Positions 30,362-62,147 are shown, numbered from the stretch's first letter. The stretch: 64,000 bases of DNA from Candidatus Borrarchaeum weybense (GCA_019057385.1 JAHQJS010000007.1:480001-544000), one strand, 5' to 3'. Made by a program: numbers and translations. Notes: generated from the letters alone by a model not told the origin.

Positions 30362-31249
30362 TTGACAAAGAGAGATCTAGTTAGCCTGGTTGAAATAAAA
30401 AATGATAACTTGCGTGACGCACTAAATCAGGCGCTCGGTTTAATAGACATAAAAATCAATAAAGCAAATAAGATAGTCATAAAGCCTAATTTATGTTATT
30501 ATTGGCATTCTTCAACTGGAGAAACTACTGATCCTCAGATTGTATCCACATTGATTGATTTTATTAGAGACAATATTGGACATGATTCAGATATTTCAAT
30601 TGTTGAATCAGATGCTACTGCAATGAGGACAAAATATAGTTTCAAATTTTTGGGTTATGAAGATCTAGCAAGAGAAAAAGATGTTAAATTAGTAAATTTA
30701 AGTCAAGATGAGTATAAAATAAAAAAGATAGACGGCTATCATCTCCAAGAAGTGAAAATTCCTGAGACTTTATTAAATGCTGACTATTTCATTTCAGTCC
30801 CAAAATTAAAATTACAGGATCCTTCTCTAACCCCACTAACTTGTGCTCTTAAGAATCAGTTTGGGTGTATCCCTATTCAGAAAAAATCGCAATATCATCC
30901 AGTTTTATCCGAAGTTATTTCAGATGTGAATAGTGTTATATCTCCTAATCTTTGTGTCGTTGATGGCCGAGTTGTTAAGTATAATTCAAAGATTATTCCA
31001 CTAAATTTGATCATAGCGGGAACAAATTCGCTTGCTACTGACATAATAGCGGCAAAAGTGTTAAGACTTAATCCTAAAAAGATCAAATGCATTCATTTGT
31101 ATTCCAAACTTGCTGGAAATACCCAAGTCGAACCTATTGGAACTCCAATCACTTATTTTTCAAATAAGATTCCGAAAAATCAAAGTGGAAGAATATCCAG
31201 AAAATTAAAGAAATTTGCATATCGGATTTATAGATCAATAAACTATTAA
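30362..31249 (+). CDS. DUF362 domain protein
   Basis: IKPNL; TTDP; PKLK; LKNQFG; ATD. Confidence 0.85.
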   Translation: MTKRDLVSLVEIKNDNLRDALNQALGLIDIKINKANKIVIKPNLCYYWHSSTGETTDPQIVSTLIDFIRDNIGHDSDISIVESDATAMRTKYSFKFLGYEDLAREKDVKLVNLSQDEYKIKKIDGYHLQEVKIPETLLNADYFISVPKLKLQDPSLTPLTCALKNQFGCIPIQKKSQYHPVLSEVISDVNSVISPNLCVVDGRVVKYNSKIIPLNLIIAGTNSLATDIIAAKVLRLNPKKIKCIHLYSKLAGNTQVEPIGTPITYFSNKIPKNQSGRISRKLKKFAYRIYRSINY

Positions 31250-37749: not shown

Positions 37750-38883
37750 ATGAAATTTCAGCGAATTGAAGACATGCTTCTGTTCCAGACTATCATGGAT
37801 GATAGTAAATTATTCGTTAAAGAACTGGAAACGATGAGGAAGAAAAAAAATTCAATTGACTGGCTTTACATCATAGAGTGTGCTAAAAGGAATTCTATTA
37901 TTCCTCAAGTTTACATTTTTTTTGATATTGCTAAAGATATTCAAGTACCAAAGGAGATTCTTGAACAATTAAGGCGTTTATATTATAAATACTTATCTTA
38001 TTATCTTACAGCAAATTATACGATAAAAGAAATCATAAAGTTGTTTAATAAAAACAATATTCGATTTCTATTAATAAAAGGACATTCCATTGACCAATTC
38101 TATCCTCATTCTCATTACAGACAGTTTTTAGAGATTGATGTTTTAGTCTCCTCAGTGAAAAAATTCAAAATGGCTTGCAAAAAATTAAGAGATTTTGGAT
38201 ACAGGGTTTTCCCAAAAAGACAACTTAAAGAAAAACATCTGTTCGCCTTAAATTTTGCTAAAAAGGATAGAATAAGTATTGATCTCCACAAAGAATTAAT
38301 TTGGGGAAATCATAAAAACTGCAAAGAAGAACTTTTTCGAAACAAAAATATAATGAAAATTGATGGATCAAATCTCTTTACAGTTTCTCCAGAAGCCAAC
38401 ATTTTGTTTATTTGCTCAAGATTATTTGAATCAGGGTATTTTCTGATTAGAGATATCTTCGACGTTATAAGAATAATTTCTTATTCCAAAGACCAACTAA
38501 AATGGGATCACATTTTATATAGTGCGCAGAAGAATAATCTGTTATTTCCACTTCTATGTCTCCTTTATCTTGTTCACTTCTTTTATCATCCAGATTTAAT
38601 TCCCAGAAGCGTTTTTAAACAATTGTCAAGAAATTTCTTTTTAAAACTGATTTGGGCGTTATTGAAAAAAACTAAAATAGAATTTCCATTATTCTGGAAC
38701 TCTTCAGTAAGTAAGATAGGTCTATTATACGGAAATCTCCTTAAATCTAAAAGAAATTTGAAACAATTTATTTTAGATGTCCAAAGATCTGGACTGAGTC
38801 ATGAATTACGATTTCTTTTGGCTCAACGCATTAAACAGCCAATTGCTTTCCATTATATTAAAGAAATGCTTATACGAAAATGA
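37750..38883 (+). CDS. Nucleotidyltransferase family protein (NTP_transf_5-like)
   Basis: LLIKG..YP...R...EIDVLV; IDLH; RDIFD. Confidence 0.8.
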   Translation: MKFQRIEDMLLFQTIMDDSKLFVKELETMRKKKNSIDWLYIIECAKRNSIIPQVYIFFDIAKDIQVPKEILEQLRRLYYKYLSYYLTANYTIKEIIKLFNKNNIRFLLIKGHSIDQFYPHSHYRQFLEIDVLVSSVKKFKMACKKLRDFGYRVFPKRQLKEKHLFALNFAKKDRISIDLHKELIWGNHKNCKEELFRNKNIMKIDGSNLFTVSPEANILFICSRLFESGYFLIRDIFDVIRIISYSKDQLKWDHILYSAQKNNLLFPLLCLLYLVHFFYHPDLIPRSVFKQLSRNFFLKLIWALLKKTKIEFPLFWNSSVSKIGLLYGNLLKSKRNLKQFILDVQRSGLSHELRFLLAQRIKQPIAFHYIKEMLIRK

Positions 38884-39092: not shown

Positions 39093-39803
39093 ATGACACG
39101 TGGAATTATTTTTGCACATTCAGATATGACTGAAATATCAGAACCTCTTTATTTTCACCCCGCAACTTTAGATGAGACATTAGTTCACCAAATTGCAATC
39201 AAAGCAGCCACCCTCGTTATGACCACCATAGATCTCTCCATAGATTTTGAAGGCGCTTCATTATTTCAATTTCCCGACAAAGGGATTACTATTTTAGTCT
39301 ACTATTTTCTTTTTTCACTTGAAGAGAATGAAACAGAAAAACAAACCCCTGCAACTATATCTTTGTTAATAGAATCAAAATACGATTGGTTTTTCTTTAA
39401 AGAGATTAAACCTTTAGTACGCCGCATTGCTCTAATAGTAAGAAGAATCAGAGATTCTGGAGAAATTCTAATAGAAGAATTCAAAGAATTGTACAAATTT
39501 CTTAACACGGTGTATCGTCGAGATGAAGACCTTAAAAATTCACGAATTTTTTCGTCCCAAGCGATTAAGAAACCAATTTACATTTCAGATCCTCAAGGAT
39601 TTTTAGATTACTACCCTTATGTCAATCTGGATTTGGGAGATGCGATTATCTCACATCTAATAGATGGCGATGCTACTATAGCAGAACTATCAACGATCTT
39701 GAGTGCCTCATCCTTTGAGCTACTTCCCATATTTCAACGGCTTTTTCGTTATAAACTGATTTCTCTTAAGAATAATGCGTCAGTTTTAGAATTAAAGAAA
39801 TAG
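39093..39803 (+). CDS. Longin-like N-terminal domain plus C-terminal winged helix
   Basis: Beta-alpha-beta-beta-beta-alpha pattern (GIIFAH, LFQFPD, ILVYYF, ATISLL); C-terminal IDGDATIAELS...L...KLI wHTH. Confidence 0.5.
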   Translation: MTRGIIFAHSDMTEISEPLYFHPATLDETLVHQIAIKAATLVMTTIDLSIDFEGASLFQFPDKGITILVYYFLFSLEENETEKQTPATISLLIESKYDWFFFKEIKPLVRRIALIVRRIRDSGEILIEEFKELYKFLNTVYRRDEDLKNSRIFSSQAIKKPIYISDPQGFLDYYPYVNLDLGDAIISHLIDGDATIAELSTILSASSFELLPIFQRLFRYKLISLKNNASVLELKK

Positions 39804-40204
39804 TAAATTAATGTATAAAATCTCATTTTAAAGAGTTTTTCCCTAAATAATAAATTAAGAACTCTCTAGGATACCAAAGGATTATTTACATTAAGAAGAA
39901 CATCTTTCAGAAGTAAATAGAAACCCCCAATAATTTATTGTATTGTATTTGAGTGATTCACAATGAAAAAAAATAGAAACGTCTAGAAATTAAAGTTCTG
40001 GCTTTAAGTCAAAATGCGCTTCTTGGAGAAAAAAAACATTGGGTGACTTTATGGTTCCTGGAAAAAAACGAAAGGATACATCTCAGACTTTGCAGCAGAT
40101 TTACAGGAATTATATGTACAAAAGACTTTCATTAAGAGAAAAGAATTCTAAAAATGGCTAAGAATATCTCAAAAATACGAAATCCAATTGAGGAAACCGT
40201 TAAT

Positions 40205-40256
40205 TTTAAATATAAGGAGTAAAGATATTAGAAAAAGATTAACGTATCAATTGGTG
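40205..40256 (+). promoter_or_regulatory. Putative archaeal TATA box (TTTAAATA, 40205-40212) and GGTG RBS (40253-40256) for the small peptide gene
   Basis: Motif positions relative to ATG 40263; AT-rich background lowers specificity. Confidence 0.4.
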
Positions 40257-40262
40257 TTATAC

Positions 40263-40337
40263 ATGAAATGGGAAAAACCAGAAATTAAGGAACTTGATGT
40301 CGAAATTGGAGTCGTCAAGGGATCTTGGGGATTCTAA
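40263..40337 (+). CDS. Putative RiPP-like precursor peptide MKWEKPEIKELDVEIGVVKGSWGF
   Basis: Manual translation. WxxPxIxxL matches the RRE-binding leader motif of lasso-type precursors. RBS upstream, T-run downstream, next to kinase, peptidase and RRE genes. Confidence 0.75.
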   Translation: MKWEKPEIKELDVEIGVVKGSWGF

Positions 40338-40468
40338 AATATTTTTTTATTTAATTCCTGCTATTTTTTAGTATATTTTGGGCTTAGTCAACTCATATTA
40401 AGCTAGTTTTCAATATAATCTTTTTTAAGATTGAATAAAAAAATCTAAAATACTGGCTAGTTTTAGTA

Positions 40469-41485
40469 CTAATCGTTATTATCGAAAATATCATCTACAG
40501 TTTTTAAAACTTGAGAGTGATTCTTTCCTAAAAATAAATCATAACATTTTATGTTGCGAACTAAACTGTATGCTATTTCAAATATACTTTTGCGAATTGA
40601 TGTGTCCTTTTGTACAGATGGAAATGGATCAAAAACGCAAGGTAGTAATCTTTGAAGTGCTTCCTCTGATGACAATTGTTTATAATTAGACTTTCCAGAA
40701 GTTAAAATCGGAAATGCAATAAATTTAAGCTTAGCTTTTCTTGTTAAACAATTTGCATATATCTCAGTAATGTCAATGTAAGGACGCTTAACTCGTGTTC
40801 CTTTTCTCCTCGTATAAATTTGAAATTCTGAAAATTGTTCAATTATATCTGGCCGGACTTTCAATCTAAGAGGAAAAGCAAAGATCTCAAAAGTAGAATT
40901 TTTACTTAAAATTAGTGGATAATCATCAGACAGAAAATTATAGCCCAATCTTGTCAATATAATTGAGAGTGTGGTTTTTCCGCTACCTGCTTTACCTGGA
41001 AATAGAATTCCCGCGTTATTCTTTGAAGCTGCTGCAGCATGAACACTAAATATCTTTTTTTTAATTAGTTTCTTTGTTAAGATATTCATAATCATGTCTG
41101 TGAGCATATGGTACACTGAAAGATTTTCAACTGTTGAGTATCCGTGATAAATTTCCTGATCTGGATTAGCTAGAAAGATAACATTGCCAGACATACCGTT
41201 TATAATTATCCAACTATCATCTAACACACTAATACTAAATTCCGCTAAATCGTCGGTAAGAATTTCCTTTATCAGTTTGGCTTCTTTTAAACCATAAAAA
41301 TTAATAGGAAACGACTTTAAATCATTCATAATTTGGAAAAATACGTTTGCATCTAAATTTGAATCCTTTATTGAGTTTAACTCGAAATGTTTATAGTCTT
41401 CCAATATTTCATCGTGATAGAAATCTGAATTAGATATGAAATTCAGTCTTACACCATGTACTGATATCTTTGTAATCCTGAACAT
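40469..41485 (-). CDS. HPr kinase/PEPCK-like P-loop kinase
   Basis: VHAAA; GKAGSGKTT Walker A; FLSDD. Confidence 0.88.
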   Translation of the reverse strand: MFRITKISVHGVRLNFISNSDFYHDEILEDYKHFELNSIKDSNLDANVFFQIMNDLKSFPINFYGLKEAKLIKEILTDDLAEFSISVLDDSWIIINGMSGNVIFLANPDQEIYHGYSTVENLSVYHMLTDMIMNILTKKLIKKKIFSVHAAAASKNNAGILFPGKAGSGKTTLSIILTRLGYNFLSDDYPLILSKNSTFEIFAFPLRLKVRPDIIEQFSEFQIYTRRKGTRVKRPYIDITEIYANCLTRKAKLKFIAFPILTSGKSNYKQLSSEEALQRLLPCVFDPFPSVQKDTSIRKSIFEIAYSLVRNIKCYDLFLGKNHSQVLKTVDDIFDNND

Positions 41486-41512: not shown

Positions 41513-42061
41513 TCAATTAAAAATATGAAAAAAATTTCCTCTGAGTTTTCGTGATATATTACTTCTAAATATCTTATACTTCTTTAGCTGTTTTGGCCTC
41601 AATTTTGAAACAAATATTTCAAGTAGAAAGCCAATCTTAGTCTTGAAATTAACATTGCTGTACTTATTTTTACTATTTAATTCGATTACTTTAGCAAAAA
41701 CAGATCTAGCTTGAATTGGACGATCAGCAAAATAAGAATTATCTCCTTTGGTTAAGAAATAAGTTGTCTTTAATTTGACTTTCCATAAAACTCTGTGTCC
41801 AATCAATGTTCCTGCTTTTTTAAACAGAATGATATCTCCAATTTTAATTTGTTCAACAGTCACTTTTTGAAAAAAAACTTCTTCTCCATCTTTAATTGAA
41901 GGTTCCATACTTTGTCCACGAAAGGGTAGTTTTACCTTCTTTTGATTTTTCAATGCCCTCAATATTAACTCTAAGCTAATCTTTTCTTCACTTTGTTCTT
42001 CTGTATTTTGTTCACTACTTTTTTTCACAAAAACACCCAACTCAGGACATATAAATCTCAA
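41513..42061 (-). CDS. S24/S26 family peptidase, soluble
   Basis: GQSMEP (catalytic Ser); GDIILF; GHRV (His); TKGDN; no TM segment. Confidence 0.88.
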   Translation of the reverse strand: MRFICPELGVFVKKSSEQNTEEQSEEKISLELILRALKNQKKVKLPFRGQSMEPSIKDGEEVFFQKVTVEQIKIGDIILFKKAGTLIGHRVLWKVKLKTTYFLTKGDNSYFADRPIQARSVFAKVIELNSKNKYSNVNFKTKIGFLLEIFVSKLRPKQLKKYKIFRSNISRKLRGNFFHIFN

Positions 42062-42262: not shown

Positions 42263-45200
42263 TTGGGAATAACTTGCATAATTAATAAGAAGCCTTATTA
42301 TTATATTTCAAAATTTAAAAATCCAAAAAAAGTTTTTTGCTTCGCTTTTATACTTATCTTCACTTTAAGCATAATATCTTATACTTTTCTTTTTGATAGT
42401 CGTTCACCTCAATTGGAGATTATTTCTCCACTGGACAATTCTACTGTTTTTGGAAACGTTAAGATTGAGGTAAATGCAGAGGCTTATCACGAGATTTATA
42501 GAGTAACATTAAGCATAAATGAGGGTACATCTTCACAGATGGATAAAATTAATGGAAATAGCCAGCAAGGCAAGTATGTTTATGTTTGGAATACGCAGGA
42601 GATTCCCGATGGAACATATGAACTTAATGTTCAATTGATTGACACTTTCGGACATACAACACAAAAACAAATTACAGTATATGTAAAGAACGTTTTTATT
42701 AGTACTTTCAGTAGTTCAGCAAAGGATTCTTCTAATGAATTGGTAACGGATTCAAACCAATACCACTATTTGTCTTTTGATCAGATATCGGAAACTGGTT
42801 TCATAGTGGAAACTGAAGAAATAGAAGAAACATTCAATGTAATTGTTGAAAAAACAGAAAGAGAGGAAGATAGGGTCCTAATATCAGGAGTTTTGTCATT
42901 TAACGGGCCACTTCCAGATGCTTTTTGGTTTAATGTAACAGGAGATACAGGACAGTTATTAAACTATAAATTTAACCCAGAAATTCCAGAAGATGCTATA
43001 TTGCAAATAACTGAGAATGAAGAACCGCCACTCATTATTAAAATAGACGGAAACGCGATAAACGAACAAGAAACCTATCTTTTCGAACTTTATTTTGAGA
43101 ATGACAATGAATTTAACGGTAAAATCAAAGTTGGAACTGGTACAACTGTTGTCTTAGTCTATGAAGCACAAAACGATCCTACTATAGACGGAACATTAAC
43201 TTCTGGAGAGTGGGATGGCGCTTATGTTATGGCATCAGATTGGAAAGCTGAAAATGGAGGAGCATCTCCAACATTTGATATCGCTGCATATATAATGCAG
43301 AACTCCACACATGTTCTTGTTGCTTTTAATATTTCAGATGCCATTATCGTGAGCGATCCCTATGGAGATTATGCAGTAGTTTATTTTGATGTAAATAATG
43401 ATGCTCCACCTCCACAAATTGTTGGTGATCCAGCGATAGATGACCATGGTTATGGTATAGTGAGAACTCCAACTGGAGGACTTCGTGAAGAACGTCAGGG
43501 AATAGGTACCAGCACAGGAAGGGAAGGTTGGGATGATTCAGGCAAATGGCGATATTGGGATATTATTGATCCTCCTTCTGCAGCTTGGAAATCTGGCTTC
43601 TTTGATGACGATACTTATTGGTCAATTGAATTAGCAATTCCTTTTTCTGAACTTGGAGTAACTTCTCAAGATGTAATCGGTATTAAATGTCTATACGGTG
43701 AGAGTGCAACTGAAACGGAATTCGCATGGCCACCTGGTGGCGGAGATCCAGGTGAACCTGTAGGTGATTTGGATGCAGAAGATGACACTGCCAGTTATGG
43801 TGATGCCTATTTGGATATTGATGGTCCAATAGTGTGGAACGTTACAGTAAGTCCTCAACAAGCGATAGAAGGAACTCTTTTCACGTTTACAGCAACTGTT
43901 AATACGACAGCGTCTGAAACGATTACCAGTGTAACAATAGATATTACAGAGCCTGATAAAACACCAGTAGCGTCTATTACTTTATATGATGACGGAACTA
44001 GTAGCGGTGATCTTGTTGCTGGAGATGATATCTGGACAGGCCAGTGGGATTCTACGGGGAATTCAGTTGGAGATTATTATTTATCAGTTGACGCAGAAGA
44101 CATTCAACTTGATTTAACAACAGTAAATAATATGACTTTAGTTGAGATAATAACGTCAGATATTCTACCGCCTGAAATCTCTAATGTTCAAATAACTCCT
44201 TCTGTAGGTCAATCCGGCGATAGTTTCACTATAAATGCTGATGTTACGGATCCTTCTGGTGTTAGTAGCGTGATTGCACATATTCAAACTCCTGATGAAA
44301 CTGATATTGCTACAGTAACTCTATATGACGATGGTTTGCACAATGATGGTGCTGATGATGATGGCACCTATGGAAATACTTGGGACTCCACAGGACAAGC
44401 AGAAGGTACTTATTACGTTGATATCGTTGCAACGGACACTGCTACAAACTCAGGAGAGTTAGAGAACGGAGACACGTTTATTATTGATAACACTGCTCCT
44501 AGTGTATCTAATGTCCAAGTGACACCTTCTGAAGGCCAGTCTGGCACTATTTTCACCATAACCACCGATGTCACTGATACACTTTCAGGTGTTAATAGTG
44601 TGATCGCTTATATCCAAATGCCTGATGAAACTACCATTGCTACTGTAACGCTGTATGATGATGGCTTGCATAATGATGGAGCTACTGGAGATGACACTTA
44701 CGGAAATACTTGGGACTCCACAGGGCAACCTGAAGGTACCTATTATATTGACGTTGTCGCAACAGATAATGCCAGTAATTTAGAAGAGGCTGAAGATGGG
44801 GACACGTTTATAATTGATAACACGCCGCCTGTAGTCTCAAATATTCAAGTATCTCCTTCTGCGGGTCAATCTGGTACAACTTTCATCATCACAGCGGATG
44901 TCTCGGATGCCTTGTCTTTAGTCAGCAGTGTGACGGCCTATATCCAAATGCCTGATGAAACTACCATTGCTACTGTAACGCTGTATGATGATGGCTTGCA
45001 TAATGATGGCACTGCCGGAGATGGCACCTACGGAAACACCTGGGACTCCACAGGACACGCTGAAGGCACCTATTATATTGACATTGTTGCAAGTGATGGT
45101 GTTGGCAATTCAGTAGAGGAGGAAAATGGGGACACGTTTATAATTGATGATAGTCCTCCAAATGTTTCCAATATACAGGTAACTCCTTCTGCCGGTCAAT

Positions 45201-47938
45201 CAGGGACTGTTTTCGTCATAACGGCTGACGTGTCAGACCTGCTCTCAGGAGTCAACAGTGTGACTGCCTATATCCAAATGCCTGACGAAACTACCATTGC
45301 TACCTTACAATTATTTGATGATGGCTTGCATAATGATGGCACTGCCGGAGATGGCACCTACGGAAACACCTGGGACTCCACAGGACAATCATCCGAGATA
45401 TATTTCATTGATATCGTTGCTGATGATAACCTAGGCAATTCAGGAGAAACTGAGAACGTTGACACATTTATTGTTGACGATGACCCACCTACACTTCCCG
45501 ATCCTTTTGTACCACAACAATCAGTTGAATATCCTAATGACCAAGATGATGTCACTATAACAATTCCAGATCCAATTGACCTTTCACCCATTGCTGTCTA
45601 CCTTAATTATACAATAAATGGAAACCCGCAATCTTCAATACTTATGCAATATGGTAGTTCATATAGCGGTACAATACCTGCCCAGCCTGCAGGTACAACA
45701 GTAACATACTTCTTTCATATTTTTGATAGTGCTGGAAATGATCTGGTTAATTCTAGTTCGGCTTATGCATATATTGTCGACGGTGCCCCACCTGAGATCT
45801 CAAATGTTCAAGTTACACCCTCTAGTGGTCAATCGGGGACTGTTTTCGTCATAACGGCTGATGTGTCAGACCTGCTCTCAGGAGTCAGCAGTGTGACTGC
45901 CTATATCCAAATACCTGATGAAACAACCATTGCTACAGTAACGCTGTATGACGATGGTTTGCACAATGATGGTGCTGCTGAAGATGGCACCTACGGAAAC
46001 ACCTGGGACTCCACAGGACAATCATCCGAGATATATTTCATTGATATCGTTGCTGATGATAATGCCAGCAACTCAGGCGAACTGGAGAATGGAAACACTT
46101 TTATCATTGATGACGATCCTCCTCAGGTTTCGAACGTTCAAGTTACGCCCTCTACAGGTCAACCTGGCACTATTTTCACCATAACCGCCGATGTCACTGA
46201 TACACTTTCTGATGTCATTAGTGTAACTGCTTATATCCAAATGCCTGATGAAACTACCATTGCTACAGTAACGCTGTATGATGATGGCTTGCATAATGAT
46301 GGAACTACTGGAGATGACACTTACGGAAATACCTGGGACTCCACAGGACAATCTATCGGTACCTTCTATATAGATATTGAAGCGGTAGATACTCTCGGTA
46401 ATTCTGGTGAGACTGAGAATGGAGCTATTTTTGCGACTGATGATACGCCGCCTGCAGTCTCAAACATTCAAGTATCTCCCTCTGCAGGTCAATCTGGTAC
46501 AATTTATACCATCACGGCGGATGTTTCGGATGCCCTGTCTGGAGTCAGCAGTGTGACTGCCTATATCCAAATACCCGATGAGACAACCATTGCTACAGTA
46601 ACGCTGTATGATGATGGCTTGCATAATGATGGTATTGCCGGAGATGGCACCTACGGAAACACCTGGGACTCCACAGGACAAGTTGATGGTACTTATTATA
46701 TTGATATCGTTGCAAGTGATGGTATTGGCAATTCAGTAGAGGAGGAAAATGGAGACACGTTTATAATTGATGATAATCCTCCAAATGTTTCCAATATTCA
46801 GGTAACTCCCTCTGCCGGTCAATCTGGTACAATTTATACCATCACAGCGGATGTTTCGGATGCCCTGTCTGGAGTCAGCAGCGTGACTGCCTATATCCAA
46901 ATGCCTGATGAAACAAACATAGCAACATTACAATTATTTGATGATGGAGCACATAGTGATGGATTAGCTGGAGATGGTACCTATGGAAACACATGGGACT
47001 CCACAGGTCAATCATCAGAGATATATTACATTGACATTGTTGCTGATGATAGCCTAGGCAATTCAGGAGAGACAGAGAACGGTGAAACATTGATTGTTGA
47101 CGATGACCCACCTACACTTCCTCCTGATTTTGAGCCACAACAATCAGTTATTGATCCAGATGATCAGGAAGCTGTCACCATTATAATACAAGATCCTCTC
47201 GATCTTTCGATTAGTGAGGTATATCTTAACTACACAACGAATGGAAACCCACAACCTTCAATACTTATGCAATATGGTAGTTCATATAGCGGTACAATAC
47301 CTGCCCAGCCTGCAGGTACAACAGTAGCATACTTCTTTCATATTTTTGATAGCGCTGGTAATGATTTAATTGAAAATAATGGTGGTTTGAACTATACATA
47401 CACAGTAAGCAGTTCTGGCGGTGGAGGAGGTGGCGGAGACGGTAGCAGTAGCAATGGTGACGGCGACAGTAGCAGTGGTAATGGAGGAAGCAAGACAACT
47501 GCAAAAACAATGATATTAACATTACTAACTGAAATTCCTTCTGCTGTTACTCAAGGTACAAGAGTCACTGTGAAATTTAGTTTAACAGATGAATCTGAGA
47601 ATGGCATAGAAGGTGCAATTGTTTCCTTAACGATAGCCAATGAATCAATAGTTTGCACTGATTTAGGAGATGGAATATATACCACTATGATTGACACTTC
47701 TGGTCTATCTCCAAGCGACTATACTGTATCAATCTCAGCAAGCAGTGAAGGCTATGAGTCAAAAACTACTACTTTCACTCTTACAGTAACTCAACAAGTT
47801 CCGTTGATTTTAGTAGGAGCAGGAGGCGTAATTGCAGCATGTGCAGTTCTTGGTATAATTCTGGTCTTAAAAAACGCTGGTATAATTTTTTCAAAAAAAT
47901 TAGCTTCATATTACCAGAAAATTCATCAAATGACCTAG
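42263..47938 (+). CDS. Giant cell-surface protein: Ig-like domain, CBM9/DOMON-like domain, nine LYDDG Ig-like repeats, Gly/Ser linker, C-terminal TM anchor
   Basis: N-terminal hydrophobic segment; PTIDGTLTSGEW and WSIELAIPFSEL (CBM9-like); repeated LYDDGLHNDG..GDGTYGNTW; C-terminal helix plus basic tail. Confidence 0.85.
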   Translation: MGITCIINKKPYYYISKFKNPKKVFCFAFILIFTLSIISYTFLFDSRSPQLEIISPLDNSTVFGNVKIEVNAEAYHEIYRVTLSINEGTSSQMDKINGNSQQGKYVYVWNTQEIPDGTYELNVQLIDTFGHTTQKQITVYVKNVFISTFSSSAKDSSNELVTDSNQYHYLSFDQISETGFIVETEEIEETFNVIVEKTEREEDRVLISGVLSFNGPLPDAFWFNVTGDTGQLLNYKFNPEIPEDAILQITENEEPPLIIKIDGNAINEQETYLFELYFENDNEFNGKIKVGTGTTVVLVYEAQNDPTIDGTLTSGEWDGAYVMASDWKAENGGASPTFDIAAYIMQNSTHVLVAFNISDAIIVSDPYGDYAVVYFDVNNDAPPPQIVGDPAIDDHGYGIVRTPTGGLREERQGIGTSTGREGWDDSGKWRYWDIIDPPSAAWKSGFFDDDTYWSIELAIPFSELGVTSQDVIGIKCLYGESATETEFAWPPGGGDPGEPVGDLDAEDDTASYGDAYLDIDGPIVWNVTVSPQQAIEGTLFTFTATVNTTASETITSVTIDITEPDKTPVASITLYDDGTSSGDLVAGDDIWTGQWDSTGNSVGDYYLSVDAEDIQLDLTTVNNMTLVEIITSDILPPEISNVQITPSVGQSGDSFTINADVTDPSGVSSVIAHIQTPDETDIATVTLYDDGLHNDGADDDGTYGNTWDSTGQAEGTYYVDIVATDTATNSGELENGDTFIIDNTAPSVSNVQVTPSEGQSGTIFTITTDVTDTLSGVNSVIAYIQMPDETTIATVTLYDDGLHNDGATGDDTYGNTWDSTGQPEGTYYIDVVATDNASNLEEAEDGDTFIIDNTPPVVSNIQVSPSAGQSGTTFIITADVSDALSLVSSVTAYIQMPDETTIATVTLYDDGLHNDGTAGDGTYGNTWDSTGHAEGTYYIDIVASDGVGNSVEEENGDTFIIDDSPPNVSNIQVTPSAGQSGTVFVITADVSDLLSGVNSVTAYIQMPDETTIATLQLFDDGLHNDGTAGDGTYGNTWDSTGQSSEIYFIDIVADDNLGNSGETENVDTFIVDDDPPTLPDPFVPQQSVEYPNDQDDVTITIPDPIDLSPIAVYLNYTINGNPQSSILMQYGSSYSGTIPAQPAGTTVTYFFHIFDSAGNDLVNSSSAYAYIVDGAPPEISNVQVTPSSGQSGTVFVITADVSDLLSGVSSVTAYIQIPDETTIATVTLYDDGLHNDGAAEDGTYGNTWDSTGQSSEIYFIDIVADDNASNSGELENGNTFIIDDDPPQVSNVQVTPSTGQPGTIFTITADVTDTLSDVISVTAYIQMPDETTIATVTLYDDGLHNDGTTGDDTYGNTWDSTGQSIGTFYIDIEAVDTLGNSGETENGAIFATDDTPPAVSNIQVSPSAGQSGTIYTITADVSDALSGVSSVTAYIQIPDETTIATVTLYDDGLHNDGIAGDGTYGNTWDSTGQVDGTYYIDIVASDGIGNSVEEENGDTFIIDDNPPNVSNIQVTPSAGQSGTIYTITADVSDALSGVSSVTAYIQMPDETNIATLQLFDDGAHSDGLAGDGTYGNTWDSTGQSSEIYYIDIVADDSLGNSGETENGETLIVDDDPPTLPPDFEPQQSVIDPDDQEAVTIIIQDPLDLSISEVYLNYTTNGNPQPSILMQYGSSYSGTIPAQPAGTTVAYFFHIFDSAGNDLIENNGGLNYTYTVSSSGGGGGGGDGSSSNGDGDSSSGNGGSKTTAKTMILTLLTEIPSAVTQGTRVTVKFSLTDESENGIEGAIVSLTIANESIVCTDLGDGIYTTMIDTSGLSPSDYTVSISASSEGYESKTTTFTLTVTQQVPLILVGAGGVIAACAVLGIILVLKNAGIIFSKKLASYYQKIHQMT
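44168..47410 (+). repeat. Coding tandem repeats: about 330-nt units arranged as [4 units + spacer domain] x2
   Basis: Near-identical DNA such as gatggcttgcataatgatgg and tgggactccacagg recurs; the spacer (ggtacaatacctgcccagcctgcaggtacaac) occurs twice about 1.62 kb apart. Confidence 0.9.
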
Positions 47939-47963: not shown

Positions 47964-48227
47964 ATTCTCCCGAAAACTAGTGAAGATATAGTATGGAAAA
48001 AGAATAATGACAAAATCGTTATATTTGATGCTAAAAGTGGAAAATTGTTTGAACTCAGTGAAACAGCCGCATACATATGGGAATTATGTGATGGACAAAA
48101 AACAGAAGACGACATAATTTCAATTTTAGCCAAAGAATTTAACAAAGATGAAGCAGATATCAGAGGAGACGTCATGGAATTTATGGAAGAGATGTATCAG
48201 AAAGGATTTCTTGATAAGAATACCTAA
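47964..48227 (+). CDS. PqqD-family RiPP recognition element (RRE)
   Basis: Frame open from 47961: ILPKTSEDIVWKKNNDKIVIFDAKSGKLFELSETAAYIWELCDGQKT...DVMEFMEEMYQKGFL. Likely ATT start at 47964 after GGGGT. Confidence 0.88.
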   Translation: MLPKTSEDIVWKKNNDKIVIFDAKSGKLFELSETAAYIWELCDGQKTEDDIISILAKEFNKDEADIRGDVMEFMEEMYQKGFLDKNT

Positions 48228-49144: not shown

Positions 49145-52100
49145 TCATCTTCGATGGCGTAGCCTAAGAACTTGATCCCGGATGATCACAAATATAGCCC
49201 CAAGAATTATTGACATCATACCAATCCGAATTGGCAGAAATAGACTAGAGATGTAATTATTAATAGCTGTCGGAATGATCATCTCTTTAATTTCTATGAC
49301 TTTTATTTCTTCATAGGTTGAATAGCCGTCTTTTTTTACTGTTATAGTAATTTCATGCATTCCCAGATTTAGATCAGTTGTATCTATTACACATGTATAT
49401 GTATCGACATCATCGAAAATTGCATAAAATATTTTTTCAAGAATTTCTAATTCTACTGAAGCATCGGAAATTATTTTGTTCTCATCATCAAATACCTTTA
49501 TTTTAACAAAGATTTTATCACCTTGGAAAACAGTTGTTTCGCTAAAGTTTATTATGGCAATTAAATCCAAATTATCCTGATCTCCACTGCCTCTTCCTCC
49601 ACCCCCAGTGTCCTCTTCTTGTGATGATTCAACTGTTACGATCAAAAAGTCGCTTGCAAAATTTCCAAAGGTGTCATTTGCATTTATTATATAAGTGTAC
49701 TCTCCAATGCTTAATCCGTCTATATTGATGATAATTTGAGCGCCACTTGAGTAAGATCCACTCTGAACCAAAATACCATTTCTTGTAACATTGTAGTAGT
49801 CTGGATGTGGTTCATTTATTATCCAACTAATGATATTCCCTGTAGTTCCTATCTCGTATGATATATCACCTGGAGAATTGAAAGTAGGAGGAGTAACATC
49901 AGGAGTAACCGTTATATTGATAATATCACTTGCCGAATTACCAGAGCTGTCATTTGCATATAGTATAAACGTATAAATTCCAACACCTAATCCATCTACA
50001 TTAACTAAAACACTTCCGTAGTATGCTCCGCTTTGTACCACAGTACCATTTCTTGTGACATTATATTTATCCGAATAGGGTTCATAAATCGTCCATGAAA
50101 TGGAATTTCCAGATTGTCCAGCCTCATATGAGAAATCTGCGGGTGAAGAAATTGAGGGGGCGGTGGTGTCCGGTCCAGTTTCAATTTCAATATTAGCACT
50201 GCTCGCAAAAGTATGATTGAAAGATAAGATCTTTGTTAAAAAATCGTGATTAAATAATACTGGTGCTCCATTGATTGTAATGGAAGCAACTGGGAGATTA
50301 CAATAAACTAAAAATTCAGCATCTGTGCCTGAATGAGCAGTAGCGTTTATTATATAGATATTTCCAATAGCACCTTCATTTGTAACTGACACTATATTAT
50401 CACTTGCTTTTGCATAGACCAATGAGATATATTCATATTTGGCTTCTTTAATAATAAACCAATGAGCAATTTCTCGTTCAAATGTAAACTCAAATCGTTC
50501 ACCTTTCTGGAAAAGTACATCTCCATTATCATCGGTTACTAAAGTCTTATTAGTTTCGCTTAGTTCAACGGAATCTAAAATATGTGAATTATATCCCAAA
50601 TTCGAGGTCGGACGGTCAAAGACATAGATCAAATAGTCTTTGTTTGCTTCCATAAAATCGGAAAAGTCCACCTGCGTTGTATGGTAAGGGATAGTCCGAA
50701 CTTCAAAATCAGTGCTTGAGAAAGAATCATAATAAATCGAAACAAGTGTTGCGTAAGAGTTGTTATAGACTGTATAGTACATATACTTGTCTCTTGTGAA
50801 ACCATTGACCCATCCTGCATCTAAGGTAACGTTTACATGACAAACTTTATCGGTATTATCTGTAAGATAATAAAATGTTCTCATAAATGTTTCAAAAAGT
50901 CTACCACCCATCGGGTAATCTAATGGGTAAGTACCTGAAGATTCATATGGCGTATAAGCAATATATCCGCTCCCAATATCATCTCTTATGTAAAGATAAG
51001 GCATTTTCCACGAATTGTCTCCATACCAAATGATAACATATTCAGCATTTGCCTCATTAGTTACATTATACATGCCATCTGCAAAATTGTTAACTCTTAA
51101 TCCTTCCCATTCGGGTTCTCCAAGCATATTAGGCAAATCAGGCTGATAACCTTCAGAATTATCTACTAATCCACGATACTCTTCGTCATTTATGATCCAA
51201 TGACTCTCATCAACAAAGAAATTATCATTTATTTCATCCCAACTAGCGTTAACGCATTGCAAACCCAATAATTGCTCCCAATATCCTGTTCCTAAACTAG
51301 TTCCATTTGTGCTATATCGTCCAACATCACCCATAAACCATACAGCCCCTCCATCCATCACATAGCTTGTAACACTCGAATTTAACTTGTCTGAATATAA
51401 TGAATGATAAGTTGTATCTGGGCTTCCAGTATTTTGCCCTGCAATTACTAGTAAATCACAATCATCTGGAATGCCATTTTCTTCAATATAATAAGTTGAG
51501 ATAAAATCAAGCTGAGCAGGCAATCGGAAAAATAAGGATTTATGATAAAGTCGTGGTGTCATTCTCGTCCCATCTGCTGCACCATAAAAATCTGAAATTT
51601 GTCGCGCGGATACACCGACCATAAAATAAACCTTTGCTATTTTGCGATCGGAAAATTGCTTGTATGTTTTCCATACTTCTCTGAAATCTTCATGTGCTTG
51701 CCTGTAATCATCATACCTATCTTCAGGAATATTATATCCATACGGGCTTTGGTGATTATACATAATTGCTGGTAAGGTACCTTGAGCACTTGTCCTTTGT
51801 AAAGTGGCTCTTAATCCTTCATGATCAAGATCATCTTGCCATGTTTCTTCCCAATCATTCATAAAAGGCACTCTAGTACTCCAATAGTCCACATAGTTGA
51901 TGAAATACTCATCATCAATATTAGTTCCTTTCTGATGTTCAAAAATATCTGCACCAAGCCGAATTGCCAAGTCTGAAGATTGTAGTCGATTATCATCACC
52001 ATCGTACAAAATTACGCTAACATTATGATTTTTTGCTTGATTAATTAAGAGTTTATACCATTCATTATGGATAAGCTTTTGTCTAAAGTATAACCAATCG

Positions 52101-53887
52101 TTCATAAAAGGAAGTGAATCATTCCTACCACGTGGGAATGCACTGTTTTCTTCAAAAGTAACCCATGAGAGTTTAAAATCATCTTTATATTGTGTATAAT
52201 TTCCTAAAAACCAGTCAATAACTTTCTTTGTTACCATACCGCTCCAACCCTGATTCCACGCATTCCATACGCCGAGAGCTCTAGTATCACCATAATTAGG
52301 ATGAATACCGTCAATCGCACACTCTCCATTTGGCAAAGTGCAATTTTCATAATACCAGTTCATCAATTCGAGTAATTTATCTCTTACAAAATAGGGATCA
52401 TCATCATAATTGCCGATTGGAGCGCCTATTCTGTGATAACCTTCCATATAATAGATTTCATACAAATGATTATGTGTAGCATCGTGTATAGTAAGAATAC
52501 AAGTTTCGTTATCAAAACTCCATTGTTCATGGCCATTTCCATAGGTCAAATATTGGGCATCGTTAACATCGTAAACGTCCCAATAGTCTTTTTGTTTAAG
52601 GCAAATAGAAACATCTCCAAGAAATACTGAAATATCTCCAGTAGGCCCTTCATTCTCTAAGGATTTCATACGTGCTTCGAATTGCATAAAGGCATTATGA
52701 GCCCTGAAGTCAGCCCGTCCACTATCTTCGTTATAATAATCTCCATCAGCGTATCCGGAATCAGTGTAATTATCTAACTGTGTCCAAAAAGAATAGCCCA
52801 TAGTTGATCCACAATAAATTAATCGAGGTTCTATCCAAATTCTATATCCTTCTTTCTTTAACGAGATAATTAAATCCCTAAAATTATCTTTACCCCACTT
52901 ACTGTTAATTGGACTTAAGGGATACTTCCAAGCAACATTGATTTGAATTATATCACCTTCTTGTGCTCCACAGCCTTCCATTCGATCCAAAATATACTGT
53001 GTCATATTTGTTTCATCGTATTTTAGATCCCATGCCATAGCGATAGTGCCGCGATAATCATAGACTTCTATTCCCAATGACAAATCTCCAGAAATAGTTA
53101 TGTTTTTACAGTACATTCTCATCCCATAAACCTCACTTGGCGTGGGAGGATAAATTTCAACGTAATAATTACCAGCGGCTATTTCGGTAAAGGTTATTTC
53201 ACCATTTATATCGGCTTGACCATAAGCAGTTTTGTTCCAATGTTCATTCGCCAATTTTACCCAACAATAGCTATAATCTTCTTTCGTTACATCTTCAATT
53301 ATATGAAGTCGTAACTCATAGGATCCTCCTCCAAAGATAGGATCAAAAATAACAGAATCAAATACACTCAAATTTCCACTATATCCAGTAATTTTGAGTG
53401 TATGCCAACCCTCTGGTATCTCCAAATAGTAAAAGGTATCAGTAGTATTCCCTTTAGTGACATTATCCAGTTCTATTTCAAAATAATCGAAATCTCCTGT
53501 AGCATTCCAAGTTGCGTTGACATATTTTGTTGCTAAAATCGTACCATTTAAAGGATGTGTGATTGTTATGTTCAACTCTTCGTTGTTAGTTGTGTTTGAA
53601 TCTAATGCCAGATGGTTAATTCCAGATCCATTATAGGAAATTATATGTGGAGGAATGTCAAAAGGTGCCCATTCTTCAACCGTTTCGGAAGATTGCTCAT
53701 AAATCTCTTCGAAATCATCTAAAGTTAAAACATATTGGGGGGTCTCTATTTCATCAACAGTATTTTCACTTTTTAATAGTTCTTCATCTATTTGTGTTGC
53801 ATTATCGTTTGAAAATGCATGCTGAACTGGAAAGATAAACGTTGAGAACATTAACAAGACTATAATTAACAAAATTCTTTTATTCAT
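49145..53887 (-). CDS. Secreted, C-terminally anchored surface protein with GH112 (lacto-N-biose phosphorylase)-like domain and Ig-like domains
   Basis: Signal peptide; WSFDNETCILTIHDA..HLYEIYY, DWLYFRQK...AKNHN..VILYDGD and LPAQLDFIS...GIPDDCDLLVIAG resemble GH112 segments; two Ig repeats; Gly linker; TM helix plus RRHRR-like basic tail. Confidence 0.65.
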   Translation of the reverse strand: MNKRILLIIVLLMFSTFIFPVQHAFSNDNATQIDEELLKSENTVDEIETPQYVLTLDDFEEIYEQSSETVEEWAPFDIPPHIISYNGSGINHLALDSNTTNNEELNITITHPLNGTILATKYVNATWNATGDFDYFEIELDNVTKGNTTDTFYYLEIPEGWHTLKITGYSGNLSVFDSVIFDPIFGGGSYELRLHIIEDVTKEDYSYCWVKLANEHWNKTAYGQADINGEITFTEIAAGNYYVEIYPPTPSEVYGMRMYCKNITISGDLSLGIEVYDYRGTIAMAWDLKYDETNMTQYILDRMEGCGAQEGDIIQINVAWKYPLSPINSKWGKDNFRDLIISLKKEGYRIWIEPRLIYCGSTMGYSFWTQLDNYTDSGYADGDYYNEDSGRADFRAHNAFMQFEARMKSLENEGPTGDISVFLGDVSICLKQKDYWDVYDVNDAQYLTYGNGHEQWSFDNETCILTIHDATHNHLYEIYYMEGYHRIGAPIGNYDDDPYFVRDKLLELMNWYYENCTLPNGECAIDGIHPNYGDTRALGVWNAWNQGWSGMVTKKVIDWFLGNYTQYKDDFKLSWVTFEENSAFPRGRNDSLPFMNDWLYFRQKLIHNEWYKLLINQAKNHNVSVILYDGDDNRLQSSDLAIRLGADIFEHQKGTNIDDEYFINYVDYWSTRVPFMNDWEETWQDDLDHEGLRATLQRTSAQGTLPAIMYNHQSPYGYNIPEDRYDDYRQAHEDFREVWKTYKQFSDRKIAKVYFMVGVSARQISDFYGAADGTRMTPRLYHKSLFFRLPAQLDFISTYYIEENGIPDDCDLLVIAGQNTGSPDTTYHSLYSDKLNSSVTSYVMDGGAVWFMGDVGRYSTNGTSLGTGYWEQLLGLQCVNASWDEINDNFFVDESHWIINDEEYRGLVDNSEGYQPDLPNMLGEPEWEGLRVNNFADGMYNVTNEANAEYVIIWYGDNSWKMPYLYIRDDIGSGYIAYTPYESSGTYPLDYPMGGRLFETFMRTFYYLTDNTDKVCHVNVTLDAGWVNGFTRDKYMYYTVYNNSYATLVSIYYDSFSSTDFEVRTIPYHTTQVDFSDFMEANKDYLIYVFDRPTSNLGYNSHILDSVELSETNKTLVTDDNGDVLFQKGERFEFTFEREIAHWFIIKEAKYEYISLVYAKASDNIVSVTNEGAIGNIYIINATAHSGTDAEFLVYCNLPVASITINGAPVLFNHDFLTKILSFNHTFASSANIEIETGPDTTAPSISSPADFSYEAGQSGNSISWTIYEPYSDKYNVTRNGTVVQSGAYYGSVLVNVDGLGVGIYTFILYANDSSGNSASDIINITVTPDVTPPTFNSPGDISYEIGTTGNIISWIINEPHPDYYNVTRNGILVQSGSYSSGAQIIINIDGLSIGEYTYIINANDTFGNFASDFLIVTVESSQEEDTGGGGRGSGDQDNLDLIAIINFSETTVFQGDKIFVKIKVFDDENKIISDASVELEILEKIFYAIFDDVDTYTCVIDTTDLNLGMHEITITVKKDGYSTYEEIKVIEIKEMIIPTAINNYISSLFLPIRIGMMSIILGAIFVIIRDQVLRLRHRR

Positions 53888-60944: not shown

Positions 60945-62147
60945 TTGAGAGTACCTATCTATGTGTTGAACTTGAGAGGGCAACCGCTCATGCCTACCAC
61001 ACAACATACCGGAAAGAAATTATTAAAGGAAGGCAAGGCACACGCTGTTCAGCGATGCCCTTTTACCATTCAGTTGAACTATGCCACTGGAGAAAGTAAG
61101 CAACCGATTAAACTTGGAATGGACCCGGGATATATGAAAATCGGGTTTAGCGCCAAGACCGACACATTAGAAGTCATCAGTGGCACATTGACGCTGCGCA
61201 AAGATGTGTCTACCAAACTACAAGCACGACGCAGCTATCGTAGAACGCGTCGAGCTAGCTTAGGGTATAGGCCACCTCGATTTAATAACCGAACACAACC
61301 TGAAGGCTGGTTAGCCCCCAGTATTCAGCATAAACAAGAGTCACATATTCGATTAGTTGAAACACTGGCAACCCTGCTACCGTTCAGCTACAAAAGGATA
61401 GAGGTGGACAATTTTGATACACACAAAATGCAGAATCCTGAAATTACAGGCGTAGAGTATCAGCAGGGCGAACTTCAGGGTTACGAAGTCAAAGAATATC
61501 TGTTAGATAAGTGGGGGCGTACATGCGCCTATTATGGCAAAACAAACGTTCCCTTAGAAGTCGAGCATATTATCCCGAAAAGCAGAGGTGGAACTGACCG
61601 AGTGTCGAATTTGACGATCTCATGCAGGAAATGCAATCTAAAGAAAGGAGATAAAACCGCCGAGGAGTTCGGCTCCCCCCACCTCCAGCAACAGGCTACA
61701 CAACCGCTTAAAGCACCAGCCTGTCTAAATAATATTCGTTGGAAGTTAGTAGAGCAGTTAGACGCAGAGTATACCTACGGATACGTCACCAAATACCACC
61801 GCAATAAGTTAGGTTTAGAAAAGTCTCATGTGAATGACGCGTTCGTCATTGCCGGCGGAACCAACCAAGAACGCTGTAGACCGTATGAGATCATCCAAGT
61901 GAGGCGTAATAATCGTTCGCTACAGACGAACCGAAAGGGATTCAAACCATCTATTAGGAGACAAAAATACCCGCTGCAACCGTACGACCTTGTCATGTAT
62001 AATAATAGAATATATAGAGTAAAAGGCGTCCATTGTTACGGAAAATGAGTTGTATTGGACAATCCTAAAGGAAAAAATCCCAGTGTCGCAATTAACAACG
62101 TGAAGTTGATAACATATGGCAAAGGGTTATTATTCAGTTTATGCTAG
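60945..62147 (+). pseudogene. iscB: IscB RNA-guided nuclease with premature TGA at 62046-62048
   Basis: PLMP; GMDPG (RuvC-I); Arg-rich bridge helix; EHIIPKSRGG..N..C..CN (HNH); SHVNDA. The frame continues 32 codons beyond the TGA to TAG at 62147. Confidence 0.9.

Follow-up and report, generated by a model that had tools for sequence, protein, structure and literature searches.

A 24-codon ORF in the archaeon Candidatus Borrarchaeum weybense is, as judged by its conservation, a genuine, strongly conserved, and previously unannotated precursor gene. It is located in a stretch of 64,000 nucleotides, which was analyzed as a whole and is referred to as the window. By analogy with characterized bacterial clusters, the ORF would encode the precursor (A) for an archaeal RiPP pathway of the linear polyphosphorylated peptide (LPP) type, that is, of a cyclase-less relative of the phosphorylated lasso pathways. 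The probability of this assignment is estimated at roughly 0.7. Compared with the LPP clusters described so far, the archaeal host, the W-type leader, the minimal core, and the lack of a nearby exporter are new.

The precursor gene and its signals

The ORF at 40263-40337 (plus strand) runs from ATG to TAA, comprises 24 codons in addition to the stop codon, and encodes MKWEKPEIKELDVEIGVVKGSWGF. Dividing it by the spacing of its motifs according to the LPP ruler yields a predicted leader of residues 1-18 (40263-40316) and a predicted core of residues K19-F24 (40317-40334), the latter containing the codon of the invariant Ser21 (40323-40325). A promoter-like block with the archaeal TATA-like element TTAATTTTAAATATA is located on the same strand (40186-40219), ∼45 nt 5' of the ATG. 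This block is near-invariant in an alignment of the window with the related contigs L007 and L010 and, given its position and conservation, presumably acts as the promoter of the precursor gene. The ATG is preceded by a GGTG SD-like site (40253-40256, plus strand) at a distance of 7 nt, which is kept in all aligned loci and reads GGTGAT in L007 and L010. Downstream of the stop codon, a run of seven T (40342-40348, plus strand) is conserved in the alignment and is probably an archaeal oligo-T terminator. A scan for sigma-70 promoters and hairpin terminators was set aside as unsuited to an archaeon. The precursor gene is convergent with the gene of a 338-aa HprK-like kinase (40469-41485, minus strand). 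The ORF, its TATA-like box, the GGTG site, the T-run, and the convergence with the kinase gene had all been pointed out in an earlier, sequence-only reading of the window, and each of them was found again in the sequence.

Taken alone, the ORF is unremarkable because ORFs of such size are expected by chance in its AT-rich spacer. The surrounding 1.7 kb contain 19 ORFs with 20 aa or more, and ORFs of 20-40 codons are abundant herein. It is counted as a gene because its conservation exceeds chance.

Conservation and selection

Among 5.8 billion proteins, close relatives of the kinase number only two, encoded on contigs L007 and L010. Both contigs carry the same small ORF at the same place and in the same orientation beside the orthologous kinase gene. 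In L007, where synteny with the window extends over 18 kb, the kinase is 65% identical to that of the window and the precursor reads MKKEWEKPEIKELDVEIGVVKGSWGW. In L010, the kinase is 77% identical and the orthologous precursor (L010a) reads MMQKEWEKPEIKELDVEIGVVKGSWGF; in addition, two tandem paralogues (L010b and L010c) share the leader, and their Pro/Gly-rich cores of ∼20-24 residues are unrelated. A degenerate DNA pattern of the leader further retrieved the metagenomic loci L012/L013, with the precursor MKKEWEKPEIKDLDVEIGAVKGSFGPGF convergent with a kinase of 40% identity. The promoter-like block, the SD-like site, and the T-run are kept together with the ORF beside the orthologous kinases in L007, L010, and L012/L013.

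Searches over wider sets returned no further copies. Within 400 genomes of the phylum, the leader DNA pattern had no match outside the genome of the window itself, and a search of four same-genus genomes did not detect the system. The sole match of the pattern across all species (L014, Zixibacteria) falls within a large opposite-strand ORF and was rejected as a chance match. A protein search with the 44-aa paralogue returned only the query itself, and a profile of the six precursor peptides gave one chance match only among PDB chains.

Eleven positions are invariant in the six aligned precursor peptides (M1, W3, K5, P6, E7, K9, L11, V13, E14, G16, and S21). A conserved leader joined to varying cores follows the logic of a precursor. 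The orthologues exhibit pS values of 0.25-0.67, as opposed to pN values of 0-0.044, and from W3 to S21 every difference between the window, L007, and L010a is synonymous. The codon of Ser21 is TCT or TCC in some copies and AGT in others; hence, it switches between the TCN and AGY families while serine is retained. Between the window and L012, the leader is ∼90% identical and the core differs; identity is as low as 36-40% in the kinase, peptidase, and NTP-transferase, which marks the enzymes as fast-evolving and the leader as held. Of the neighboring genes in the same comparison, an epimerase is 70% and a 236-aa protein 94% identical. The earlier claim of a genuine, unannotated precursor is thus backed by conservation and purifying selection. 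The reading had also placed conservation of the leader and of the Gly-Ser pair beside orthologous kinases as the point to look for. The leader and Ser21 are indeed conserved there, and the residue preceding the serine varies in the paralogues.

Leader, core, and cleavage site

The leader contains the motif W3-x-x-P6-x-I8 (WEKPEI) and belongs to the [Y/W]xxPx[L/V/I] type that is bound by RREs. Among leader models, the PqqA model (PF08042) is the best match for five of the six peptides, with a best E-value of 0.016. This match is sub-threshold (15.7 bits, as opposed to the cut-off of 21.1) and covers only positions 1-12 of 19. The leader also yields a sub-threshold match to a paeninodin-family precursor model, and the leader part matches NF033524 with E-values of 0.07-0.12, below the cut-off. 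The assignment of an RRE-binding motif made in the sequence-only reading agrees with these PqqA and paeninodin-family similarities and with the genome's single PqqD being located in the cluster.

By LPP spacing, the predicted cores are KGSWGF in the window and KGSWGW or KGSFGPGF in relatives, and the precursors comprise 24-28 aa. The core of the window, with five to six residues, contains no acidic residue. For this peptide, it was thus correctly stated that the C-terminal part has neither Asp nor Glu and lacks the length to form a lasso ring. Ser21 is positioned 18 residues after W3, and the two residues before it vary among the precursors (KG, AK, and AL). Since the cores of the paralogues are unrelated except for this serine, it is the residue expected to be modified.

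Three boundaries between leader and core come into question. LPP spacing places the cleavage most likely between V18 and K19; the core would therefore be KGSWGF, with the serine at position 3. The ruler of lasso and Bsf precursors (Y at -17) places the boundary between K19 and G20. The cleavage V-K-G↓S that had been proposed from the signal-peptidase -3/-1 rule finds no support, since the paralogues carry L-A-K↓S and L-A-L↓S at the same position and break this rule, from which LppS also deviates with F at -3 and T at -1. The rule itself was discarded for placing the site, as no aligned position satisfies it across the six precursors. A free N-terminal serine (SWGF) was suggested in that proposal, but the precedent of LppS leaves the serine as core residue 3. 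The boundary between G20 and S21 is hence the least likely of the three by this analogy.

Enzymes and RRE of the cluster

The gene at 40469-41485 (minus strand) encodes a predicted HprK-like peptide kinase of the LppK/PsmK/BsfK type (TIGR04352, 1.2e-11; also Hpr_kinase_C and PF27840 ScmC). Its Walker A motif GKAGSGKTT and its metal-binding motif LSDD are present. The kinase family comprises 2880 representatives, one of which exceeds 33% identity; outside its own small clade, identities do not go beyond 33%.

Only 27 nt upstream of the kinase gene and on the same strand lies the gene of a soluble, archaeal-type signal peptidase I homologue (41513-42061, minus strand), the LppS-like candidate leader peptidase. 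It matches TIGR02228 with 59.7 bits, above the cut-off of 51.85. Its Ser51 (GQSMEP), His89 (GHRV), and Asp107 (GDN) are invariant and identically spaced in four loci; the Ser/His/Asp spacing is 38/18, compared with 39/25 in LppS. The protein contains no hydrophobic segment or membrane anchor (maximum KD19 of 1.05). The AlphaFold2 models of the peptidase (pLDDT 40.9) and of the 236-aa protein (pLDDT 37.6) were too poor to use because both alignments consisted of only four rows. The role of the S26 enzyme as leader peptidase and that of the serine as kinase target, both suggested earlier, have experimental precedent in the LPP clusters and would apply here by analogy.

A nucleotidyltransferase of the NTP_transf_5 family and of the PsmN/LppN/BsfN type is encoded at 37750-38883 (plus strand; PF14907, 1.2e-34). 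It contains the NTase motif KGHS...EID, and the enzyme is also kept in L007 and L012.

The discrete PqqD-family RRE (47964-48227, plus strand; PF05402, 1.5e-20) is the only PqqD in the 100%-complete genome. Among solved structures, the lasso RRE TbiB1 is the best relative, matched with 7e-6 over the full length. It scores just above the cut-off of TIGR03859, and lasso_PqqD models match with 1e-8 to 1e-11, below their respective cut-offs. The gene is located 7.6 kb from the precursor gene and ∼5.9 kb from the peptidase gene, a place that is kept in L007 and in a further locus, L031. It starts with ATT where the orthologues of L007 and L031 have ATG, and the next in-frame canonical start (TTG at 48045) would remove RRE β-strands. 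Hence, the gene may use a non-canonical start, or the RRE may be poorly expressed in this genome; the latter is considered because of the ATT start together with the distance of 7.6 kb from the precursor gene and the position behind a surface-protein gene.

Proposed pathway

In the proposed LPP-type pathway, the W-x-x-P-x-I leader would be bound by the discrete PqqD-family RRE as an added β-strand. The complex of RRE and leader would then present the junction to the HprK-like kinase, which would transfer one or more phosphates onto Ser21, that is, core position 3. The phosphoserine may be decorated further by the PF14907 NTP-transferase, for example, with sugars from the surrounding nucleotide-sugar island. 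The leader would be removed by the soluble SpI-like Ser/His/Asp peptidase in an RRE-dependent manner, most likely after V18. The predicted product is a linear, modified hexapeptide, KGSWGF in the window. Several features speak against the LPP assignment: the junction G-V-V does not resemble F-E-T, the anchor is W and not Y, the precursor is shorter than 35-200 aa, no exporter is near, one of the two precursor genes is dead, the PqqD gene starts with ATT and lies 7.6 kb away from the precursor gene, and kinase identities outside its small clade do not go beyond 33%.

Genomic surroundings and alternative readings

The cluster is embedded in a glycan island with a flippase, glycosyltransferases GT1, GT2, and GT4, GNAT, sugar epimerases/dehydratases, and a DegT aminotransferase. 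No ABC transporter was found among the ORFs scanned at 25-64 kb, a set that excludes the gene of a 1580-aa secreted protein at 49145-53887, and no exporter was found within ∼12 kb of the cluster. In L031, a gene of an ABC ATPase adjoins the PqqD gene. Divergent from the peptidase gene, a 5.7-kb gene encodes a giant surface protein with nine choice-of-anchor-X repeats (42263-47938, plus strand), and the PqqD gene follows ∼25 nt downstream on the same strand. This arrangement suggests that the RRE is cotranscribed with the giant surface protein. The order of peptidase and giant surface protein (divergent), followed by PqqD, is the same in the window, L007, and L031, and the divergent pair of peptidase and giant surface protein is also present in L013. 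Across loci, these surface proteins comprise 1432-1891 aa.

Two further genes of the surroundings are noted for themselves. A DUF362 gene is found in the archaeal glycan island (30362-31249), and another immediately precedes the PqqD gene of the unrelated bacterial locus on contig L028 (L028:4775-5614), which may be coincidence. At 60945-62048, the window encodes a 367-aa protein with RRXRR (PF14239, 1e-56) and HNH domains, a domain pair that is typical of IscB-like RNA-guided nucleases.

Between the NTP-transferase gene and the precursor genes, a conserved 236-aa protein without Pfam or NCBIfam match is encoded (39093-39803, plus strand). It is 85-94% identical in the four loci carrying the system. 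Two paralogues are present in the genome of the window (C4:840858-841538, 59% identical, and C5:105045-105743, 29% identical), and same-genus genomes without the kinase carry homologues of ∼58% identity. By these sequence relationships, the protein is a cluster-linked paralogue of a genus-wide family. Its secondary-structure pattern suggests a β/α N-terminal domain and a winged-helix-like C-terminal domain. In a profile comparison of the C terminus with the PqqD of the cluster, the expected helix was aligned, with a nonsignificant E-value of 0.3, and an RRE-like domain in this protein is a guess. Atlas leads (longin/NPR2-like and wHTH) all remained below 0.9, and its Atlas neighbors are Promethearchaeota, which is to be taken as a lead only.

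The placement of the RRE gene directly after the giant surface-protein gene, with the peptidase gene divergent from the latter, raises the question of whether a free peptide is the end product at all. In one form of this idea, the hexapeptide is a mere handle, on whose Ser21 the kinase and the NTP-transferase, supplied by the neighboring nucleotide-sugar island, would build a phospho-sugar or a longer glycan, functionally coupled to the giant surface protein. Such a role is doubtful; if true, the cluster would encode a peptide-primed pathway of cell-surface modification, as opposed to a secreted antimicrobial or signaling RiPP. In a related form, considered unlikely, the peptide is not released, and the phosphoserine peptide serves as primer, carrier, or regulator for the machinery of the surface glycan or the giant surface protein. 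The position inside a glycan-biosynthesis island without a detected exporter fits this role, and LPP and paeninodin clusters likewise lie in capsule loci, with final products that are unknown. However, gene order is its sole basis, and variable surface-gene islands often gather unrelated cargo. The N terminus of the giant protein contains no leader-like motif, and the bacterial precedent releases a free core (PMC13381572).

Upstream of the intact precursor gene, the window contains a second precursor gene in decay (39963-40045, plus strand), which is of the long-core type known from L010. It aligns with L010c from the SD and the ATG through the 3' end and has accumulated a 1-nt deletion, a change of TGG to TAG, and deletions in leader and core; stops are found in all three frames. 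The decayed second copy described in the sequence-only reading is thus real, with frameshift and stops established by alignment to L010c. The verdict of that reading that the system is not a lasso one was borne out as well. No match to the lasso B2 protease (PF13471) exists in the whole 100%-complete genome. An Asn-synthase homologue (PF00733) is absent within 300 kb, the nearest one on the contig being more than 300 kb away, and none is present in L007 and L012.

Such losses could mean that the cluster is the relic of a lasso cluster of the paeninodin or Bsf type, in which the cyclase and the B2 protease were lost and the small ORF remains as a decaying, functionless remnant. The resemblance of the leader to paeninodin-family leaders, the pseudogene, the ATT start of PqqD, the absence of a nearby exporter, and the failure to find the system in the four same-genus genomes would all agree with decay. 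A relic is nevertheless very unlikely, for strong purifying selection on the ORF is seen in four lineages, and the kinase, peptidase, and NTP-transferase are still intact with their catalytic motifs at 36-40% identity. Furthermore, all loci with enough context share this layout without a cyclase, and in Bacillota, a family that has the same gene set and likewise lacks a cyclase was shown by experiment to function (PMC13381572).

The similarity of the leader to PqqA, its best model match, and of the RRE to PqqD, just above the TIGR03859 cut-off, would be expected of a precursor for a cross-linked or cofactor product (PQQ-, mycofactocin-, or radical-SAM RiPP-like) whose main maturase gene would lie elsewhere in the genome. 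Like many radical-SAM substrates, the core is rich in aromatic residues (W and F), and the nearest outgroup kinases stand beside radical-SAM/SPASM genes. Against this, no radical-SAM gene was found among the neighbors scanned at 25-64 kb or in the syntenic 18 kb of L007, and the PqqA match is confined to the leader and below threshold, with the E-x-x-x-Y pair absent. The paralogue cores, unrelated except for the serine, point to Ser as the modified residue, and a cross-linked or cofactor-type product is highly improbable.

That the conserved element is an antisense ORF (MTTPISTSSSLISGFSH...) or a non-coding element and not a peptide gene is hardly tenable. Each of the six copies does contain an open antisense frame, with a conservation of 0.88 among orthologues, and since this frame shares its third codon positions with the sense frame, the synonymous pattern alone cannot separate the two. 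Yet of all six frames, the sense frame reaches the highest conservation (0.95 among orthologues and, toward paralogues, 0.68 as opposed to 0.58 for antisense). TTG is the only start of the antisense ORF, its ends vary, and the leaders of L010b and L010c are not covered by a start-bounded ORF on that strand. The sense ORF combines the conserved ATG, SD, promoter-like block, and T-run with the leader-model similarity, the LPP spacing of the serine, and the codon-family switch that keeps it.

Significance

An archaeal cluster with the LPP gene set would extend a family that was described only in 2026 to a second domain and to a lineage in which natural products are still essentially uncharted. 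With its 24-residue precursor and a core of ∼6 residues, the system would offer a simpler substrate for the chemistry of the kinase and the NTP-transferase than the 72-residue LppA. The comparison between loci is a natural data set in which constraint between leader and RRE can be set against coevolution with the core. Moreover, the combination of a W-type leader with an SpI-like peptidase bears on the published split of LPP from lasso pathways by Y versus W.

Comparison with known systems

LPP clusters are known only from Bacillota and have been called restricted to them (Popov et al., Nat Commun 2026, PMC13381572). Their set consists of the SpI-like LppS, the RRE LppB, the HprK-like LppK, the NTP-transferase LppN, and an exporter, and contains no cyclase (PMC13381572). 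The characterized cluster, LppA/K/B/S/D/N, is that of Paenibacillus alginolyticus; the clusters lie in polysaccharide or capsule loci, with an MsbA-like pump among the core genes (PMC13381572). LPP precursors comprise 35-200 aa and combine a conserved N terminus, YxxPxVLxHQxIxFET↓xxS, with a variable C terminus (PMC13381572). LppS (S29/H68/D93) cleaves after T at -1, with F at -3, needs LppB, and prefers the phosphorylated precursor, in which S3 of the core carries one to four phosphates (PMC13381572). NTP-transferase activity was not seen for LppN, and within Bacillota a W leader marks paeninodin-type leaders, which are rejected by LppB (PMC13381572).

The window shares with these clusters an anchorless SpI-like Ser/His/Asp peptidase, a discrete PqqD-type RRE, an HprK-like kinase, and PF14907, without a macrolactam cyclase. 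Both are situated in a locus of polysaccharide biosynthesis and encode one to three precursors, in which a conserved [Y/W]xxP leader is followed by a variable C terminus. Herein, an invariant serine is positioned 18 residues after the aromatic anchor (Y+18 in LPP and W3+18 in the window) and is preceded by two variable residues. The failure to find the system in the four same-genus genomes searched fits the patchy distribution that is reported for LPP. In contrast to the Bacillota hosts, the host of the window is archaeal. The anchor is W instead of Y, the junction G-V-V instead of F-E-T, and the leader lacks HQ. The precursors comprise 24-28 aa (core of ∼6 aa) as opposed to 35-200 aa, no counterpart of the MsbA-like exporter lies within ∼12 kb, and the RRE gene is parted from the rest by the giant surface-protein gene.

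In the phosphorylated lasso systems paeninodin and pseudomycoidin, an HprK homologue phosphorylates a serine of the precursor, and PsmN is needed for hexoses on the phosphoserine. BsfK of Bradymonas phosphorylates Ser3 of the core with the help of the RRE, and the leader carries Ile or Val at -2. Like the window, these clusters (paeninodin PadeK, pseudomycoidin PsmK/PsmN, and Bradymonas BsfK/BsfB1/BsfN) combine a W/YxxPx[LIV] leader with an HprK-like kinase and PF14907. Their RRE-assisted kinase acts on the precursor, which is proposed for the window by homology. The Ile/Val at -2 and a basic residue at -1 of Bsf can be compared with V18-K19 of the window. Unlike the lasso clusters, the genome of the window contains no B2 cysteine protease, and no lasso cyclase was found within 300 kb. 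Its core is too short and without the Asp/Glu for a ring of 7-9 residues, and the candidate peptidase is a serine, SpI-like enzyme.

The PqqA/PqqD pair resembles the window in the leader W-x-K-P-x-[IF]-x-[DE]-L and in a chaperone of the PqqD family, which in the window passes the TIGR03859 cut-off only just. Compared with PQQ clusters, the window lacks the E-x-x-x-Y pair, the radical-SAM enzyme PqqE, PqqB, and PqqC.

Outgroup kinases lie in PqqD-containing RiPP operons. The nearest of them (L023:511-3359, L025, and L026) adjoin PqqD and radical-SAM/SPASM genes, and L023 also contains a B2 protease. They represent a different kinase-containing RiPP architecture, the SynChlorMet type.

An operon on the bacterial metagenome contig L028 (L028:5652-9159) consists of PqqD, a lasso-type B2 protease, three tandem precursors of 31-34 aa, an HprK-like kinase, and PF14907. 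The precursors have YxKPx[LV]...T-x leaders, and the -17 ruler gives the cores GTISST, QKTGA, and NGTPV. As in the window, lasso-type leaders are joined to cores of five to six residues with Ser/Thr beside a kinase and PF14907, and no cyclase was found within 7 kb. The differences are the B2 cysteine protease in place of an SpI-like peptidase, the Y-type leader with Thr at -2, and the bacterial origin. In another locus (L030:112-294), a pair of kinase and PF14907 genes is preceded by a 60-aa ORF containing ...YHQPLLIKHGKLVDLTGTS..., with a serine at Y+18. This suggests that the Y+18 spacing of the serine extends to further systems with kinase and NTP-transferase.
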